Shown piece after piece: positions 7,509 through 18,787 of a stretch of DNA of 64,000 nucleotides; position 1 is the first letter of the stretch; each line of letters opens with the position of its first letter. The notes beneath the pieces were generated by a model that saw only the letters and a program-made list of their open reading frames with translations, did no database searches and had not been told where the DNA came from. Source of the DNA: an uncultured Clostridia bacterium (GTDB taxonomy: Bacteria; Bacillota; Clostridia; TANB77; CAG-508); assembly GCA_947649935.1 (NCBI GenBank), contig CANSTR010000006.1, forward strand, positions 4,494 to 68,493. Reading direction: 5' to 3'. Made by a program: the position numbers and the translations under genes.

Positions 7509-8840
7509 ATGTTTCGAAAAATTGAAACCAATCTAAAAAGAAAATTATTTTTGCATGAAACGAAAAATTTGTCTTTCTCTTCCATTCGTGACTCGTTGGA
7601 AAATCAAGTGATTTACGTCGAACCTGATTTTCATTTTCAAACTTTGTTAGGCTTTGGTGGAGCTTTTACGCAAAGTACCGGAGCCACATTAAGCTTGGTT
7701 AGCGAGGAAATTCGTCATCAAATTTTGCAAAATTATTTTTCAAGCGACGGCTTGAATTATTCGCTTGCTCGCTTGCCGATTGGAAGTTGCGATTTTTCAC
7801 CTGAAAGCTATTCGTATTCGTACCAAAATGATTTGGCGGATTTTACAATTGAAAAAGATGAAAAATACATTCTCCCTTTTGTGAAATCTGCTCTGCAAAT
7901 TCGAAATGAGAAAATCACTTTTCTTGCTTCCCCTTGGTCGCCTCCTGCTTTTATGAAGGATCATAAAGATTTGTATCATGGTGGAAAATTATTAGATTTC
8001 TACAAAAAAACTTGGGCTCAATATTTGGTTAAATTTGTGAAATCCTATGCAGAAGAAGGCATTTCCATTGATTTTATGACCATTCAAAACGAGCCAAATG
8101 CGTCGCAACCTTGGGAATCTTGTCGCTATAACGCTTCCGAAGAAGCAGATTTACTGAAAAATTATCTGTTTCCTAGTTTTCAAAAAAATCGTTTGAAAAC
8201 GAAATTTTTAATTTGGGACCACAATAAAGATGCGATTTTGCAACGCGCAACCGACTGTTTGGTCAGAAATGGTGCGCTTGATTTTGCTGCTGGCATCGCG
8301 TTTCATTGGTACACAGGAAGTCATTTTGAAAATCTGAATTTAACGCGTCAATTATTTCCGAATAAGTTGTTAATTCACACAGAAGGTTGCACGGGCTATT
8401 CGAAATTTAAGCCTCGCGATGAATTGGCAAATGCGGAAATGTACGCGAGCGAAATCATTGGCGATTTGAACCATGGTGCAAATGGATTTGTGGATTGGAA
8501 TTTGGTGTTGGATTATCAGGGCGGGCCAAATCATAAGCATAATTATTGCAACAGCCCTATTATGTTAAATAAAAAGCATTCTGATTTTATCAAAACGCCT
8601 TCTTTTTACTATATTGCGCATTTTAGCAAATACATTCAACCAAATGCCAAGCGAATTCATATTAGCACTTTTTCGGAAAATATTTTGGCAACTGCTTTTG
8701 AAAATCCCGACAAAAGTGTAGTTGTTGTGTTGTGTAATCCTCATGATTTTAATATCGAATATAATTTGTGTTTGGGAAACCAATTTTTTCATGATAATTT
8801 AGATAGTCACGCGATTGTGACATTGGTTGGTGCGCCATAG
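7509..8840 (+). CDS. Glycoside hydrolase family 30 (glucosylceramidase-like O-glycosyl hydrolase)
   Basis: 443 aa; GFGGAFT near the N-terminus, TIQNEPN (acid/base Glu context), LIHTEGC (nucleophile context); AGGAGG RBS. Confidence 0.85.
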   Translation: MFRKIETNLKRKLFLHETKNLSFSSIRDSLENQVIYVEPDFHFQTLLGFGGAFTQSTGATLSLVSEEIRHQILQNYFSSDGLNYSLARLPIGSCDFSPESYSYSYQNDLADFTIEKDEKYILPFVKSALQIRNEKITFLASPWSPPAFMKDHKDLYHGGKLLDFYKKTWAQYLVKFVKSYAEEGISIDFMTIQNEPNASQPWESCRYNASEEADLLKNYLFPSFQKNRLKTKFLIWDHNKDAILQRATDCLVRNGALDFAAGIAFHWYTGSHFENLNLTRQLFPNKLLIHTEGCTGYSKFKPRDELANAEMYASEIIGDLNHGANGFVDWNLVLDYQGGPNHKHNYCNSPIMLNKKHSDFIKTPSFYYIAHFSKYIQPNAKRIHISTFSENILATAFENPDKSVVVVLCNPHDFNIEYNLCLGNQFFHDNLDSHAIVTLVGAP

Positions 8841-8903
8841 AGGGGTCGAACCTCCGACCATCAGATTAAGAGTCTGCTGCTCTACCAACTGAGCTAATGG
8901 CGC
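8828..8903 (-). tRNA. tRNA-Lys (anticodon CUU), CCA encoded
   Basis: Reverse complement folds by hand as a cloverleaf. Acceptor GCGCCAT/ATGGCGC, D arm GCTC-AGTTGGTA-GAGC, anticodon loop CT-CTT-AA, T arm GGAGG-TTCGACC-CCTCT, then ACCA; 76 nt. Confidence 0.9.
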
Positions 8904-10982: not shown

Positions 10983-12029
10983 TTATTCAATATTTTTTCT
11001 TTGTTCTAATTGTATTTTCGCCTTTTCAATACTGTCTATCAATTTTTGCTCCAACATTTCTTTCGGTATATATTCCGTCAAATATTGTGCTACATGAATT
11101 CCGCTGTTATCCAATTCTAATAATTGCGCCACCATATAACTTTTGTCAGCACATAATATAATGGCTATTGGCGTCTCCTCTCCATCTGCTCTTTCATATT
11201 TATTTAGCCACTTTAAATAAAGTTCCACTTGTCCTTTATACTCTGGTCTAAATTTATCTAACTTTAGTTCAATAACTACCAACCTTTTCATTTTTCTGTG
11301 ATAAAATAACAAATCAATATAGTAATCTTCGCCATCTATCGTTATTCTTTTTTGCCTCCCTAAAAACGCAAAATCATTTCCCATTTCCAAAATAAATTTT
11401 TCCAATTCATTGATAATTGCATTCTCTAAATCTTTCTCACTATAAGTATCTTTCAACTCTAAAAAATCCAAAACATAGGGATCTCTAAAAAATAAATTTG
11501 TCGTCATTTTATTTTCCTTGCTTAATAACGATAAATCATTTATAATGGTTTGTTCTGGCTTTTTCTATATAGCCGTCCTCTCAAACAATGCCGAGCCAAT
11601 TCTTTCTCTCAGTGTTCGTACAGATCAAAATTCATTTGCGCACATTGTTGCATAAAATTCTCTTTTCAATTCATCTTGTATTTGCAACAACTCAACAAAA
11701 TGCGACCAAGTCAATTTTGTCGACAGTGTCGACAATTTTTCAAAATCTGAAAAACATTCATAAAACTTCATCATCCTAAATATATTTCTTTCGCCATATC
11801 CCTTTCCATATTTAGTTACCAATTTTTGACTTAACACACTAATAACCGATTTTCCATATTCAGATTTCTGATTACTCAGCACATTTTCTGTAATATCTTT
11901 CCCAATATTCCAATACAAAAAAGTCATTTCACTATTTACTTTTACAGCTACATTTCTTTTCGCATTTTCAACTAGTTCAACTATTCTATTATATAAATTA
12001 TCAATATTTTTCTTTTCTAAATCTGCCAT
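10983..12029 (-). pseudogene. YhcG-like DUF1016 / PD-(D/E)XK nuclease-family gene with two in-frame stop codons
   Basis: ORFs 11625..12029 and 10983..11507 are in the same frame. The gap reads ...CANEF-TGA-SVRTLRERIGSALFERTAI-TAG-KKPEQTIINDLSLLSKENK-MTTNLFFRDPYVLDFL. TGA at 11625-11627 (where I recall Trp in this family), TAG at 11565-11567. C-terminal ITIDGEDYYIDLLFYHRKMKRLVVIELK is the restriction-endonuclease-like core. Confidence 0.8.
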
Positions 12030-13597: not shown

Positions 13598-13644
13598 CAA
13601 AAAAGCCTCGCAAAAAAATCCTTTTAAGACTCCTTTGCAAGACT
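13598..13644 (-). terminator. Intrinsic-terminator-like hairpin inside the 5' leader of the GNAT operon (attenuator candidate)
   Basis: Minus-strand RNA: AGUCUUGCAAA ... UUUGCGAGGCU, an 11-bp stem with two G-U pairs, followed by UUUUUU. It ends about 17 nt before the ATG at 13581. The two G-U pairs become C-A mismatches on the plus strand, so the hairpin is strand-specific. Confidence 0.5.
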
Positions 13645-13726
13645 TCAAAATCTCTGCTCAGTGTAAATAACTTCCGTTATTCTATATCGCTCAGAAAACA
13701 AATTTCCTAGATATACTCTTATATTT

Positions 13727-13755
13727 ATTATACCATATTTTTCCTAATTTGTCAA
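13727..13755 (-). promoter_or_regulatory. Sigma-A promoter TTGACA-17-TATAAT with TG extension
   Basis: Minus strand TTGACAAATTAGGAAAAATATGGTATAAT; about 140 nt upstream of the GNAT start. Confidence 0.65.
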
Positions 13756-13830
13756 ATGTTTCAAAAACTTGAAACAAATTTAAAAAAACTATGTACTTTT
13801 TCAAAAATATCGTGTATAATATAAATAGTT

Positions 13831-13858
13831 AATAAAATAGTTGGTCTGTAAAGACCAA
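13831..13858 (-). terminator. Terminator of the DUF262-DUF3800 cassette
   Basis: Stem TTGGTCT/AGACCAA (7 bp, 4-nt loop) followed on the minus strand by CTATTTTATT; about 35 nt after the DUF3800 stop. Confidence 0.5.
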
Positions 13859-13892
13859 ACCCATGCAGACACAGAGTGTCGCAAAAAGTCAT

Positions 13893-14591
13893 TCATGCGG
13901 ATGGCTTTTTATATTGCCATCTTTTACTTTCCAATTGTTTCAGGATTCCCAAAATTTCTTTTCCACTAAAAAAATATTGCTCCGCTTTGGTTAATGGTAT
14001 ATGATTTTGATATTTATACACCATTTTATCAACAAATGTTAACATATCCGAGATTTGAAACAACCTTTTTTCTTTATGGTCAAATTGTACTCTATGCTCC
14101 ACATTATGCTTTGTAACCAACAGTGTATCCAGCATTTTTCCTAGCGAACCTTGTCCATTATCGTAATAAATAACCACTTTTTCAAATCCATCTATATAAT
14201 TGCCAATCGAATCCAAAAAATCATTGATTTTCCCCGCCAATTCTCTATTGAATCCTTTTTCACTCTTGAACTTTTTGTTCAAGATAATAGTATGTACTTT
14301 CACTTTCACTCGTTTCGAAAAATAAAAAATCGACCAAAAAATATCTTTTCTTCGCTTGAAATCAAAATCTGCATAATCTCCACGTCTTGCCACCAAATCA
14401 GCTAGGTGTATCATGCCATCATAATTAGCTTTCTTTAATCGATCCTTTAAATAAGCCACATCGTTTTCTATGAAATTGTCACTTTCATGCATTGTAAATG
14501 AAACGCCATATAATTCTGAACTTCCTTTCGAAAATCCAAAATCGCCACTTTCATCCACAAATATATTCAGTCTTCGCTTCATCTTCACCAC
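13893..14591 (-). CDS. DUF3800 family protein
   Basis: 232 aa; N-terminal LNIFVDESGDFG and C-terminal LFQISDMLTF match my memory of the DUF3800 hallmarks; AGGTGG RBS; 12-nt gap from the upstream gene. Confidence 0.65.
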   Translation of the reverse strand: MVKMKRRLNIFVDESGDFGFSKGSSELYGVSFTMHESDNFIENDVAYLKDRLKKANYDGMIHLADLVARRGDYADFDFKRRKDIFWSIFYFSKRVKVKVHTIILNKKFKSEKGFNRELAGKINDFLDSIGNYIDGFEKVVIYYDNGQGSLGKMLDTLLVTKHNVEHRVQFDHKEKRLFQISDMLTFVDKMVYKYQNHIPLTKAEQYFFSGKEILGILKQLESKRWQYKKPSA

Positions 14592-14603
14592 CTACTTTAA
14601 AAT

Positions 14604-15779
14604 TTATTCCATTGGTATGCCTGACGGCTTTTCTTTTTCTTGTCCATGATTCACATAATATGCCAATATCTCCATTCTATTTCTGACTCTTTCTAAAGTC
14701 TGCGCTCCCTTACTAACCAGCGCAATCGAACGAAGTTCATCAATCACCTCATCTGCATATCCTTCAAATTCTTCCTTCTCAATACCAGGTTTTGTTGAAA
14801 AAAATACTGAAAATTTGTCATCTAACTTCTGTAACGTACCCAACTTGTATTCTGTATCTACTGTAAAATCAATCAGTCCAAAACCAATTAACAGCATAAA
14901 AAATTTTACAAATCTTTTCTTAATATTGTGCAAAATAACTCTATTTTTAAATTCCGCTGTAATAAAATTAATTTGAAATAATAAATCTTCCACATCTTCT
15001 TTTCCTTCTGTTAATTCATCTGTGCTTATCACATATTTTTTTATAATACTATCTGGTACACCAAGTGAAATTTTACGGTCAATTAAACCAATAATATTAT
15101 AAAACAATTTATCAAATTCTTTTCTTTTATTATCAAATCCAATCATGTGGCAAAAAGCATCTCTGTCTTCTATTTGTGCTAAATACTTTTCCATTTTTGA
15201 ATCTGATAATGAAGTTAAAATTTCTCCCGCACGTAGTCTTTCTTGATTCTGCAAAAATTGGAAGTATTCTGTAATATCAAATTCTGTCGCCTCTGATATT
15301 TTGGTCACAGAAATATTAAAAGATTCAAATATGGCTCTAACCACAGACGGTAAATCAGCATATCTTAATCTGATATTCCCTTTATTTTGCAATTTCTTTT
15401 TTAGTTTTTCAAATTCTGAACCAAGTTTATCCCCATAAAAATCCTGGATTTCCTCTATAATTTTTCTAGAAAACTCGCTGGTTATTTCGTACTTTCCTTC
15501 TACAAAATCATAAATGGTCGTTAGGCGCTGTTGTCCATCAACGATTTCTGACATAGCTCCCTTTTCATTTGGCACATTTAATTTTCTGAGAATAATACTT
15601 CCTATCGGGTAACTTTTTATAATGCTATAAAGCAATTTATCCTTAAAATCATTTTTCCAAATATAGTTTCTCTGGTATTTTGGTTGCAAATCTAATCCAC
15701 CAAATTCCACCGTTCTAATTTCTGTAATCAATGTCATAATCGCACGTGATTCTACAGAAAATTCTAACTTTTTCCCCAT
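14604..15779 (-). CDS. DUF262 (ParB/Srx-fold, GmrSD N-terminal-type) domain protein without a recognisable DUF1524/HNH half
   Basis: 391 aa; PKYQRNYIWKNDF ... SYPIGSIIL ... EIVDGQQRLTTIYDF; GGAGG RBS 6 nt upstream of the ATG. Confidence 0.75.
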   Translation of the reverse strand: MGKKLEFSVESRAIMTLITEIRTVEFGGLDLQPKYQRNYIWKNDFKDKLLYSIIKSYPIGSIILRKLNVPNEKGAMSEIVDGQQRLTTIYDFVEGKYEITSEFSRKIIEEIQDFYGDKLGSEFEKLKKKLQNKGNIRLRYADLPSVVRAIFESFNISVTKISEATEFDITEYFQFLQNQERLRAGEILTSLSDSKMEKYLAQIEDRDAFCHMIGFDNKRKEFDKLFYNIIGLIDRKISLGVPDSIIKKYVISTDELTEGKEDVEDLLFQINFITAEFKNRVILHNIKKRFVKFFMLLIGFGLIDFTVDTEYKLGTLQKLDDKFSVFFSTKPGIEKEEFEGYADEVIDELRSIALVSKGAQTLERVRNRMEILAYYVNHGQEKEKPSGIPME

Positions 15780-15799
15780 TTTTTGCCTCCTATATTTGC

Positions 15800-15827
15800 A
15801 TTATATCATCTTTTTCAAAAAAGTCAA
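15800..15827 (-). promoter_or_regulatory. Sigma-A promoter TTGACT-16-TATAAT (TG-extended) for the DUF262 cassette
   Basis: Minus strand TTGACTTTTTTGAAAAAGATGATATAAT, about 20 nt upstream of the RBS. Confidence 0.6.
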
Positions 15828-15887
15828 TCTATTTTTCAAAAATTCTATATAGAATCTCTGTTTTTTTAAAATATTCTTTTAGAAAGT

Positions 15888-18450: not shown

Positions 18451-18787
18451 TTATTTATTATTAATTATAATAAATTCAAAATTATGTTTTTTCCCACCTT
18501 TTATGACTTTTTCAGCTTCGTTTGACCAAAAATCAACTATATCATTCATGAGTGTTTCTACTATATTAGAAATATCTCCAGTTATCTTTATTATAATATT
18601 TTTTTCACTAATCCATGATAAATCACAAGCCCAATCCAAAAATCCATCAGTTGTCATTTCATCATAACTACTTTCAGTTGCATGATTCAATATATCTAAA
18701 GCTTCACCTAATTTTTCTTTAAATTCTGTTTTAGAATCATTATCTAATTTAATTTCTCTAAAATATACATCTTTTAATATGATTCAT
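18451..18787 (-). pseudogene. Small acidic protein, possibly barstar/immunity-like, with a frameshift in an A4 run after codon 5
   Basis: AGAGGTGAA-ATG at 18787 reads MNHIK and then hits TAG. The +1 frame reads DVYFREIKLDNDSKTEFKEKLGEALDILNHATESS... and joins ORF 18451..18690. DGFLDWACDLSW loosely resembles the barstar NLDALWDCL motif. Confidence 0.5.

Follow-up and report, generated by a model that had tools for sequence, protein, structure and literature searches.

A DUF262–DUF3800 gene pair with a linked structured element as an uncatalogued candidate defence cassette of gut Clostridia

The subject of this analysis is a pair of genes in a 64,000-nucleotide (nt) stretch of DNA, hereafter called the window, from an uncultured Clostridia bacterium of the GTDB lineage Bacillota; Clostridia; TANB77; CAG-508 (GenBank assembly GCA_947649935.1, contig CANSTR010000006.1, positions 4,494 to 68,493 of the forward strand). 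The two genes lie 12 nt apart on the minus strand behind a TG-extended promoter, encode a DUF262 and a DUF3800 protein, respectively, and are followed by a conserved structured non-coding element (Table 1). A preliminary interpretation made from the letters of the DNA (the sequence-only reading) had recognised the gene pair, its near-consensus promoter and the signatures of both families; all of these were confirmed, the family assignments by Pfam matches and invariant motifs. The same reading had treated the pair as a self-contained two-gene cassette, which it is not, since the structured element belongs to the DUF3800 half. For gene 2, an alternative start at the ATG at 14582, which is preceded by a GGTGG ribosome-binding site, would give a protein of 229 amino acids (aa). 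The promoter region of a related locus, L003, is homologous to the cassette promoter of the window.

Table 1. Positions of the features described in the text. Positions are those of the window or of the related locus named; L and P numbers designate related loci and lineages.
Feature	Sequence	Position	Strand	Remarks
Gene 1, NsnA-like protein, 391 aa	window	14604–15779	minus	ParB/DUF262 NTPase domain and helical C-terminal (ParBDB-like) domain, no HNH
Gene 2, alpha-type DUF3800 protein, 232 aa from GTG	window	13893–14591	minus	12 nt after gene 1
Sigma-A-type promoter	window	15827–15800	minus	TTGACT-16-TATAAT with TG extension; 11/12 consensus positions
Palindrome ATTCTATATAGAAT, operator-like	window	15842–15855		just upstream of the −35 box of the gene 1 promoter
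Alpha-type element, core	window	13841–13888		P1 13868–13880, then single-stranded CATGGGT, then P2 13841–13858
Alpha-type element, tail block	window	13778–13823	plus	nhmmer E=2e-9; TATAAT at 13815–13820
Split DUF1016_N/YhcG PDDEXK nuclease gene	window	10983–11507 and 11625–12029	minus	two open reading frames
Promoter and 21-bp hairpin	window	13603–13645 and 13727–13755	minus	12/12 promoter with TG; hairpin and U-run about 80 nt on
tRNA gene	window	8831–8903	minus	sole Rfam gathering-level match in the window
DUF262–DUF3800 pair	window			flanks PF04018 / GNAT
DUF262–DUF3800 pair	P0003			flanks TM1506 / GNAT; DUF3800 frameshifted
DUF262–DUF3800 pair	P0017			flanks P-type ATPase / FtsY
DUF262–DUF3800 pair	P0035			adjoins MFS gene; DUF3800 frameshifted
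DUF262–DUF3800 pair	P0045, P0038			flanks ZnuABC / PFL activase
DUF262–DUF3800 pair	P0053			flanks HAD / peptidase U32; DUF3800 frameshifted
DUF262–DUF3800 pair	P0020			flanks DUF4015 / ECF sigma
DUF262–DUF3800 pair	P0057			adjoins RpoD-DnaG
DUF262–DUF3800 pair	P0058			short contig
Frameshifted DUF3800	L001–L004	7205–7904		independent lineage
Frameshifted DUF3800	L091–L092	5190–5940		independent lineage
Frameshifted DUF3800	L180–L181	4193–4939		independent lineage
DUF3800 reading frame extended into the linked element	L182	4283–5137		gains 46 aa
Standalone NsnA-like gene	L186	3014–5188		directly after a GH25-LysM endolysin gene

The product of gene 1 contains a GmrSD_N/DUF262 domain at residues 31–176 (E=2.8e-21, 77 bits against a cut-off of 33) and no second Pfam domain. 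The expectation that it would lack DUF1524 proved correct, as neither Pfam nor NCBIfam gave a DUF1524 or HNH match. The motifs YQRNYIW, DGQQR and FLQNQERL are invariant across the alignment of gene 1 homologues. Among the PADLOC models, NsnA of the Menshen system aligned with the protein over its full length (residues 15–371 to profile positions 51–374 of 385, E=5.9e-21), while the alignments of the GmrSD-type models (HEC-05/06, SspE, Orf5) were limited to about the first 100 residues; PD-T4-2_A matched the N-terminal 100–110 residues or so (E=1.6e-12). In the AlphaFold model, with a predicted local distance difference test score (pLDDT) of 86, an alpha/beta N-terminal domain is followed by helices only (residues 166–377), and the C-terminal half contains no beta-beta-alpha nuclease finger. 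The closest PDB structures, BrxU (7p9k) and SspE (6jiv), are matched via the shared domains only, and PDB sequence searches with the profiles of gene 1 and gene 2 returned nothing. Since NsnA is matched over the full length and the GmrSD-type models at the N terminus only, gene 1 encodes an NsnA-like ParB-DUF262 plus ParBDB protein, closer to NsnA than to GmrSD; it had previously been taken for a GmrSD deprived of its nuclease half, and that description has to be abandoned. A tblastn search of plasmids yielded distant matches to the N-terminal part of DUF262, one weak DUF3800 match and nothing else, and a scan of JGI metagenomes with the DUF262 profile revealed mostly distant relatives, the clade of 391-aa proteins being absent from the matches.

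Gene 2 was assigned to DUF3800 (PF12686) with E=1.3e-6 and 29.6 bits against a cut-off of 21. The motifs DESGD and QISD are invariant among its homologues, as are residues D10, E11, D141 and D179, and the Q and D of the QxxD motif are conserved across all three types of DUF3800 protein described below. The carboxylates of RNase HII (DEAG...D...D) parallel these invariant D and E residues. The structural model represents a soluble alpha/beta protein of 229–232 aa with a pLDDT of 68, for which the top Foldseek matches were RNases HII and HIII (E=6e-4 to 1e-2, with template modelling (TM) scores of only 0.33–0.41); the closest PDB entry was RNase HII 1eke (E=6e-4, TM 0.40). Gene 2 is predicted to encode a nuclease of the RNase H fold, and its matches agree with the published predictions of such a fold for DUF3800 (PMC7736814, PMC10910872, PMC12669027). 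No PADLOC model, including DUF3800_VII and NsnC, matched gene 2 at E≤1. The sequence-only reading had considered DUF3800 a family with no assigned role, but there are leads. Besides the predicted fold, DUF3800 proteins have been described as the effector of retron type VII and as accessory proteins at CRISPR loci of types V-A2 (Cas12a2) and VI-F (PMC7736814, PMC10910872, PMC12669027), TPR-DUF3800 accessory genes have been reported at Cas12a3 loci (2026 preprint, bioRxiv 10.64898/2026.01.16.699850), and 11 unrelated RNA motifs adjoin DUF3800 genes (PMC5737381).

The clade of 391-aa DUF262 proteins was sampled with ten lineages, namely the window and nine homologues at 62–78% identity. A DUF3800 gene recognised by Pfam lies 10–106 nt downstream of the DUF262 gene in all ten; the conservation of this adjacency in other genomes had been named beforehand as a test of the proposed system. 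The cassettes lie between about eight distinct pairs of flanking chromosomal genes and have no further neighbour in common (Table 1). The DUF262 proteins of the paired clade share 66–78% identity with one another, while their DUF3800 partners fall into three types with only about 20% identity between types, all of which pass Pfam: the alpha type in the window and P0003, the beta type of 238 or 284 aa, and the gamma type of 242–249 aa. In PADLOC, beta-type proteins matched DUF3800_VII, the effector of retron type VII (E=1e-22 to 4e-25), and gamma-type proteins matched PDC-M04A. On the DUF262 phylogenetic tree the paired clade is monophyletic, with gamma-type lineages at its base and the alpha and beta types nested inside. 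Therefore, the partner was replaced at least two times by distant members of its superfamily while the architecture was kept, and this swapping of the partner behind a conserved DUF262 protein is the strongest argument for a functional coupling of the two genes. The DUF3800 gene is frameshifted in three of the ten lineages, each frameshift being present in at least two assemblies, whereas the upstream DUF262 gene is always intact, a pattern consistent with that expected for a costly effector.

The distribution of the alpha-type DUF3800 gene is much wider than that of the pair. A scan of species-representative genomes yielded 80 loci with alpha-type genes at 47–73% identity, surrounded by genes for a tyrosine integrase, an Xis-like protein, Mob_Pre, and RepA_N or a serine recombinase; therefore, these loci represent integrative mobilizable elements. 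The homology among the mobile elements has a sharp onset at the ribosome-binding site of DUF3800, AAAGTAGGTG, a sequence that also occurs in the window. In clade A (L007–L045; e.g., L011, L019, L025, L009, L024, L050), the gene order is DUF6076, a variable gene and DUF3800, with gaps of 2–54 nt. The slot upstream of the alpha-type gene is occupied by fused PARIS AriAB (E=1e-135), Old, RmrA of RosmerTA (E=4e-133), PDC-S19/DUF3644 or a retron RT_VI gene (in L050), or is empty. In clade B (L047–L086; e.g., L056, L062, L063, L047, L076), which carries alpha-like DUF3800 genes at 53–60% identity, variable genes lie downstream, between DUF3800 and the tail block described below, and include those for ResIII helicases, an HD protein, a 2'-5' RNA ligase-like protein and GNATs; a gap of 600–900 nt separates the upstream Mob_Pre gene from DUF3800. 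Backbone genes of such elements were looked for in the window, and none were found.

A strongly conserved non-coding element is located directly 3' of every alpha-type DUF3800 gene. It consists, in this order, of a terminator hairpin, stem P1 (GACGC/GCGTC), CGGGT, stem P2 (TTTGGTC/GACCAAA), an AT-rich hairpin P3, and a tail AAAATTATACAC...GAAAAAAGTAC. An nhmmer profile of the core gave 50 hits, all directly 3' of alpha-type genes and none elsewhere, and detected the copy in the window at 13888–13841 with E=5e-11. The hits lie on the strand of the gene, 14–95 nt past the end of the protein match, except for a second copy in L043 and L080 (protein match shortened). In the window, P1 reads GACAC/GTGTC and P2 reads TTGGTC/GACCAA, and the window and L003 share a compensatory change in P1 relative to the copies in mobile elements. 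In variant and tandem cores the hairpins are preserved although the sequences differ; a mixed alignment of variant cores supported P1 but misaligned P2. The hairpin at 13841–13858, which the sequence-only reading had interpreted as the terminator of the operon, does exist; as a terminator it is weak (−10.1 kcal/mol, z=−1.4, with 22 of 200 shuffles folding equally well), and it is actually stem P2 of this element. The last eight or so codons of gene 2 (YKKPSA; 13893–13920) are translated from a degenerate copy of the mobile-element terminator hairpin. A longer extension of this kind was observed in L182, where the DUF3800 open reading frame gains 46 aa by read-through into the linked element, compared with about 8 aa in the window; therefore, gene callers bury part of the element within the coding sequence. 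The TATAAT of the window tail is directed on the plus strand back through P2 and P1 toward gene 2, with a weak −35 box (TGTACT). By analogy with the gamma and beta types, from which its orientation is deduced, it may serve as the promoter of a convergent small RNA.

Elements of different shape accompany the other two types. Among the sequences compared, the gamma element follows every gamma-type gene and is absent elsewhere. It forms a Y-shaped three-way junction of 20 base pairs, five of them with compensatory changes; 98% of the cells are paired, compared with 20–48% in slid controls, and the covariation score was reached by no shuffle. One G-U pair is valid only on the strand opposite DUF3800. 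A scan detected a TTGACA-17-TATAAT promoter (12/12) on this opposite strand, and a U-run abuts the DUF3800 stop codon. The beta element is a nearly identical stretch of about 90 nt with a covarying hairpin and an opposite-strand TTGACA-17-TATAAT, the latter recognised by eye in two sequences. The motif AATTATACA is common to the types and corresponds to the −10 box TGTATAATT of the gamma and beta promoters; TGTATAATT is also found in the tail of the window element. Judging by these features, the gamma and beta elements look like genes of convergent small RNAs, and it is on account of the promoter, the U-run, the strand-specific G-U pair and the shared motif that the DUF3800 half can be read as a module of a protein and a putative convergent small RNA. 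Such a module would be consistent with the 2017 report of many unrelated RNAs linked to DUF3800. If the elements are indeed RNA genes, the strand opposite DUF3800 should yield a discrete transcript of 75–150 nt whose start lies some 7 nt beyond TGTATAAT. No Rfam 15 family, including the DUF3800 motifs held by Rfam, was found at the alpha, beta or gamma elements (the window was searched at the gathering threshold, the locus at E≤10 and the related loci at E≤1).

The DUF262 half has a conserved non-coding feature as well. In 9 of the 11 paired loci, and in several loci of the standalone clade, the −35 box of the DUF262 gene is immediately preceded by a palindrome, ATTCT-N3/4-AGAAT. Its window version, ATTCTATATAGAAT, is the single match in the 64 kb, where 0.04 matches would be expected by chance, and 690 kb of mobile-element loci with alpha-type DUF3800 contain only four matches. 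The palindrome, whose variants include TAGAGTCTATTGACA, abuts the −35 box of both paired and standalone NsnA-like DUF262 genes (window, L097–L099, L184, L101–L104, L185–L190). A second palindrome in the window, at 18723, was dismissed because of its other spacer and the lack of a promoter context. The palindrome accompanies the DUF262 gene and is a possible operator; one could speculate that the ParB-like protein regulates its own synthesis through it.

The surroundings of the cassette in the window are those reported earlier, with a PF04018 (formerly DUF368) transporter gene upstream and a run of GNAT and DUF402 genes downstream. The AT-richness noticed by eye is marginal: the cassette has a GC content of 31.6% versus 33.8% in the window, which puts it at the 21st percentile among 2-kb windows and is unremarkable. 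About 2 kb from the cassette, within the GNAT run, the gene for a DUF1016_N/YhcG nuclease is split in two (Table 1); each half gives a match to PDC-S02, a single-gene candidate in PADLOC (E down to 1e-65), which suggests a further candidate defence gene that has apparently been disrupted. A perfect promoter is followed by a very stable 21-bp hairpin and a U-run (−24 kcal/mol, z=−5.8) with no Rfam match; the hairpin is situated just ahead of a GNAT start codon, and the whole could constitute a leader or attenuator. A functional link between the cassette and the downstream GNAT genes, suggested by the occurrence of GNATs at this place in clade B, was rejected, since the similarity is merely generic.

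We tentatively favour, at slightly less than an even chance, the interpretation of the locus as a defence cassette composed of an operon and an RNA, in which a DUF262 sensor controls or cooperates with a DUF3800 nuclease and the RNA restrains or partners this nuclease. The NsnA-like ParB/DUF262 NTPase with its helical DNA-binding domain would act as a sensor of invading DNA. The RNase-H-fold DUF3800 nuclease, co-transcribed from a gene 12 nt downstream, would be the effector, taking the place of the HNH half of GmrSD or of NsnB and NsnC of Menshen. The 3' structured element, probably a convergent small RNA, could serve either as an antisense or antitoxin-like check on the nuclease or as its RNA partner, and the DUF3800–RNA pair would represent a portable effector module swapped behind a conserved sensor. 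This scheme is founded on what was observed: the structure of the genes, the domains to which they belong, their conserved adjacency, the swapping of modules, and the conserved and covarying elements; from these we infer DNA sensing, nuclease activity, transcription and a role of the RNA, and an anti-phage phenotype. Several standalone relatives of gene 1 at 48–50% identity are found on viral contigs (L184–L190, IMG/VR), and the one in L186, placed directly after an endolysin gene, occupies a typical position of a prophage moron; this defence context of the relatives was counted in favour of the cassette.

A number of observations weigh against this interpretation. Relatives of gene 1 at 45–54% identity (393–398 aa) stand alone, and no fusion of DUF262 with DUF3800, as judged by length, was found among 150 diverse representatives. 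Only two columns of the DUF262 alignment track the type of the partner, which argues against a tight protein–protein interface. The quality of the DUF3800 model is moderate (pLDDT 68, TM 0.40). The alpha cores resemble one another too closely for strong covariation, and RNAalifold detected only one compensatory pair; in the window the element is partly eroded, with P3 missing, a degenerate terminator hairpin and a weak −35 box. Finally, a DUF262 gene was present in none of the 80 alpha-type genome loci, where the slot holds unrelated self-sufficient defence genes or is empty; therefore, the alpha module can persist without DUF262. The split sensor/effector system proposed in the sequence-only reading thus stands in part: the absence of an HNH domain and the conserved adjacency agree with it, but alpha-type DUF3800 also lies beside unrelated complete defence systems and DUF262-only relatives exist. 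Coupling of DUF262 and DUF3800 as sensor and effector is a plausible hypothesis.

These points bear most directly on a different explanation, according to which two independent modules share a location: a single-gene DUF262 defence or DNA-binding factor, and a self-contained DUF3800–RNA unit acting, for example, in addiction (as a toxin with its antisense RNA) or in defence, which would tend to be located beside mobile defence cargo and perhaps stabilise it. We consider it a serious possibility, although on the doubtful side. It would account for the alpha-type DUF3800 gene and its element being part of the backbone of integrative mobilizable elements (with tyrosine integrase, Mob_Pre, RepA_N and DUF6076), for the sharp beginning of the mobile-element homology at the DUF3800 ribosome-binding site, for an upstream slot that accepts PARIS AriAB, Old, RmrA, PDC-S19, retron RT_VI or nothing, for the location of the clade B cargo between DUF3800 and the tail block instead, and for the DUF262 relatives that stand alone. 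Frameshifted DUF3800 genes beside intact DUF262 genes also fit the decay of a toxin, and a convergent RNA overlapping the 3' end of a gene resembles the layouts of type I toxin–antitoxin systems in Firmicutes. Nevertheless, all ten lineages of one DUF262 clade keep DUF3800 at operon spacing in about eight contexts and with three replacement types, and chance co-location is therefore no explanation for the pairing. Moreover, outside mobile elements the cassette consists of exactly these genes, with no mobile-element gene added.

It is also conceivable, though quite unlikely, that the locus is a decaying fragment of a mobile element and not a defence system, its genes having served that element. 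The ParB-like protein would then have had a part in partition or regulation and the RNase-H-like protein one in replication or transfer, and the 3' element would have been a DNA site, either an oriT or a single-strand origin. The window does hold an eroded 3' element of the mobile-element type, similar hairpin-rich elements are found in elements encoding a MobV-type relaxase, and ParB-family proteins act in partition and bind palindromes, one of which is conserved in the promoter. However, gamma- and beta-type cassettes are situated between housekeeping genes with mobile-element genes absent nearby, and their elements show features of RNA genes (a consensus promoter, a U-run and the strand-specific G-U pair). 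The family closest to gene 1 is a defence protein, and the slot beside DUF3800 in the mobile elements is filled with defence genes. The 3' element was also considered as ssoA and rejected, since the RSB and CS-6 signatures (PMC4598088) were unmatched. The suggestion of an ordinary GmrSD-type type IV restriction enzyme with an overlooked nuclease domain, which the Pfam GmrSD_N match and the closest structures, BrxU and SspE, might prompt, is effectively refuted and has a negligible probability, given the absence of a DUF1524/HNH match and of a beta-beta-alpha finger in the all-helical residues 166–377, the length of 391 aa versus about 530–780 positions in the PADLOC GmrSD-, SspE- and HEC-type models, which make contact at the N terminus only, and the full-length alignment with NsnA.

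Of the described systems, Menshen (NsnA-NsnB-NsnC; Millman 2022; Li et al. 2025, PMC12065111) is similar in that gene 1 aligns with the whole of NsnA, comprising ParB-DUF262 and a helical ParBDB-like domain, and in that a conserved sensor precedes a highly polymorphic downstream effector. However, the cassette lacks the ABC ATPase NsnB (AAA_15 plus DUF3696), as do the nine other sampled lineages, and in place of NsnC (an inactive PIN domain plus a nuclease) it has a DUF3800 protein of predicted RNase H fold, to which a structured element is linked. The Menshen survey makes no mention of DUF3800. Like gene 1, GmrSD, BrxU and SspE have a DUF262 NTPase with DGQQR and QR..W motifs at the N terminus as well as a helical middle domain, and they provide the closest structures, but the cassette protein is about half as long and lacks the DUF1524 His-Me nuclease, so that any nuclease would be a separate protein of another fold. 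PD-T4-2 and Dazbog are likewise small multi-gene systems built around a DUF262 protein without DUF1524; PD-T4-2_A matches no more than the DUF262 domain, the partners differ, and no Dazbog model matched gene 1.

Retron type VII (Mestre 2020, PMC7736814) combines a DUF3800 effector with a non-coding RNA, and beta-type partners match its DUF3800_VII model. In contrast, the cassette and its flanks contain no reverse transcriptase (RVT) domain, the alpha-type protein of the window gives no DUF3800_VII match, and the RNA elements linked to the cassette are distinct and apparently convergent. The alpha, beta and gamma elements fit the pattern of the DUF3800-I to -XI RNA motifs (Weinberg 2017, PMC5737381), which have unrelated shapes, occur in either orientation and in several cases include terminators, but they differ from these motifs in the absence of an Rfam 15 match at E≤1 and in their DUF262 operon context. 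A possible counterpart of the convergent small RNA of type I toxin–antitoxin systems is the gamma element, with its opposite-strand promoter found by scan, covarying structure and U-run, and also the beta element, which looks the same but whose promoter was recognised by eye; the window has a −10 box and eroded stems only; gene 2, in turn, encodes a soluble protein of 229–232 aa and not a small hydrophobic peptide toxin. No publication on the combination of DUF262 and DUF3800 was found in the literature searched, and PADLOC 2.0.0 has no system model for it. Lacking DUF1524, NsnB and NsnC, and a reverse transcriptase, the cassette falls outside GmrSD, Menshen and retron type VII, respectively, and it is a candidate for an uncatalogued DUF262-based defence system of gut Clostridia.

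A broader and rather improbable proposal is that DUF3800 proteins are RNA-gated or RNA-guided nucleases of the RNase H fold, each type inherited together with its own convergent RNA, and that this module can be plugged behind many sensors (DUF262, retron reverse transcriptase, Cas12a2 or mobile cargo). If true, it would account for the eleven orphan RNA motifs reported beside DUF3800 in 2017 and establish a new three-part architecture of a sensor NTPase, an RNase-H-like effector and a cognate RNA. The alpha-type loci, for their part, expose a family of mobilizable elements of gut Clostridia with a hypervariable defence-cargo slot anchored on the DUF3800 module. DUF262 sensors have so far been known with HNH nucleases (GmrSD, SspE) or with ATPase and PIN-like effectors (Menshen), and the conserved pairing of DUF262 with DUF3800 and its element would add a further effector branch to this sensor family. 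The cassette would also offer DUF3800, a family without known biochemistry, a tractable context of two genes and an RNA, and the swapping of DUF3800–RNA modules behind a constant sensor would be a clean natural experiment in effector modularity.

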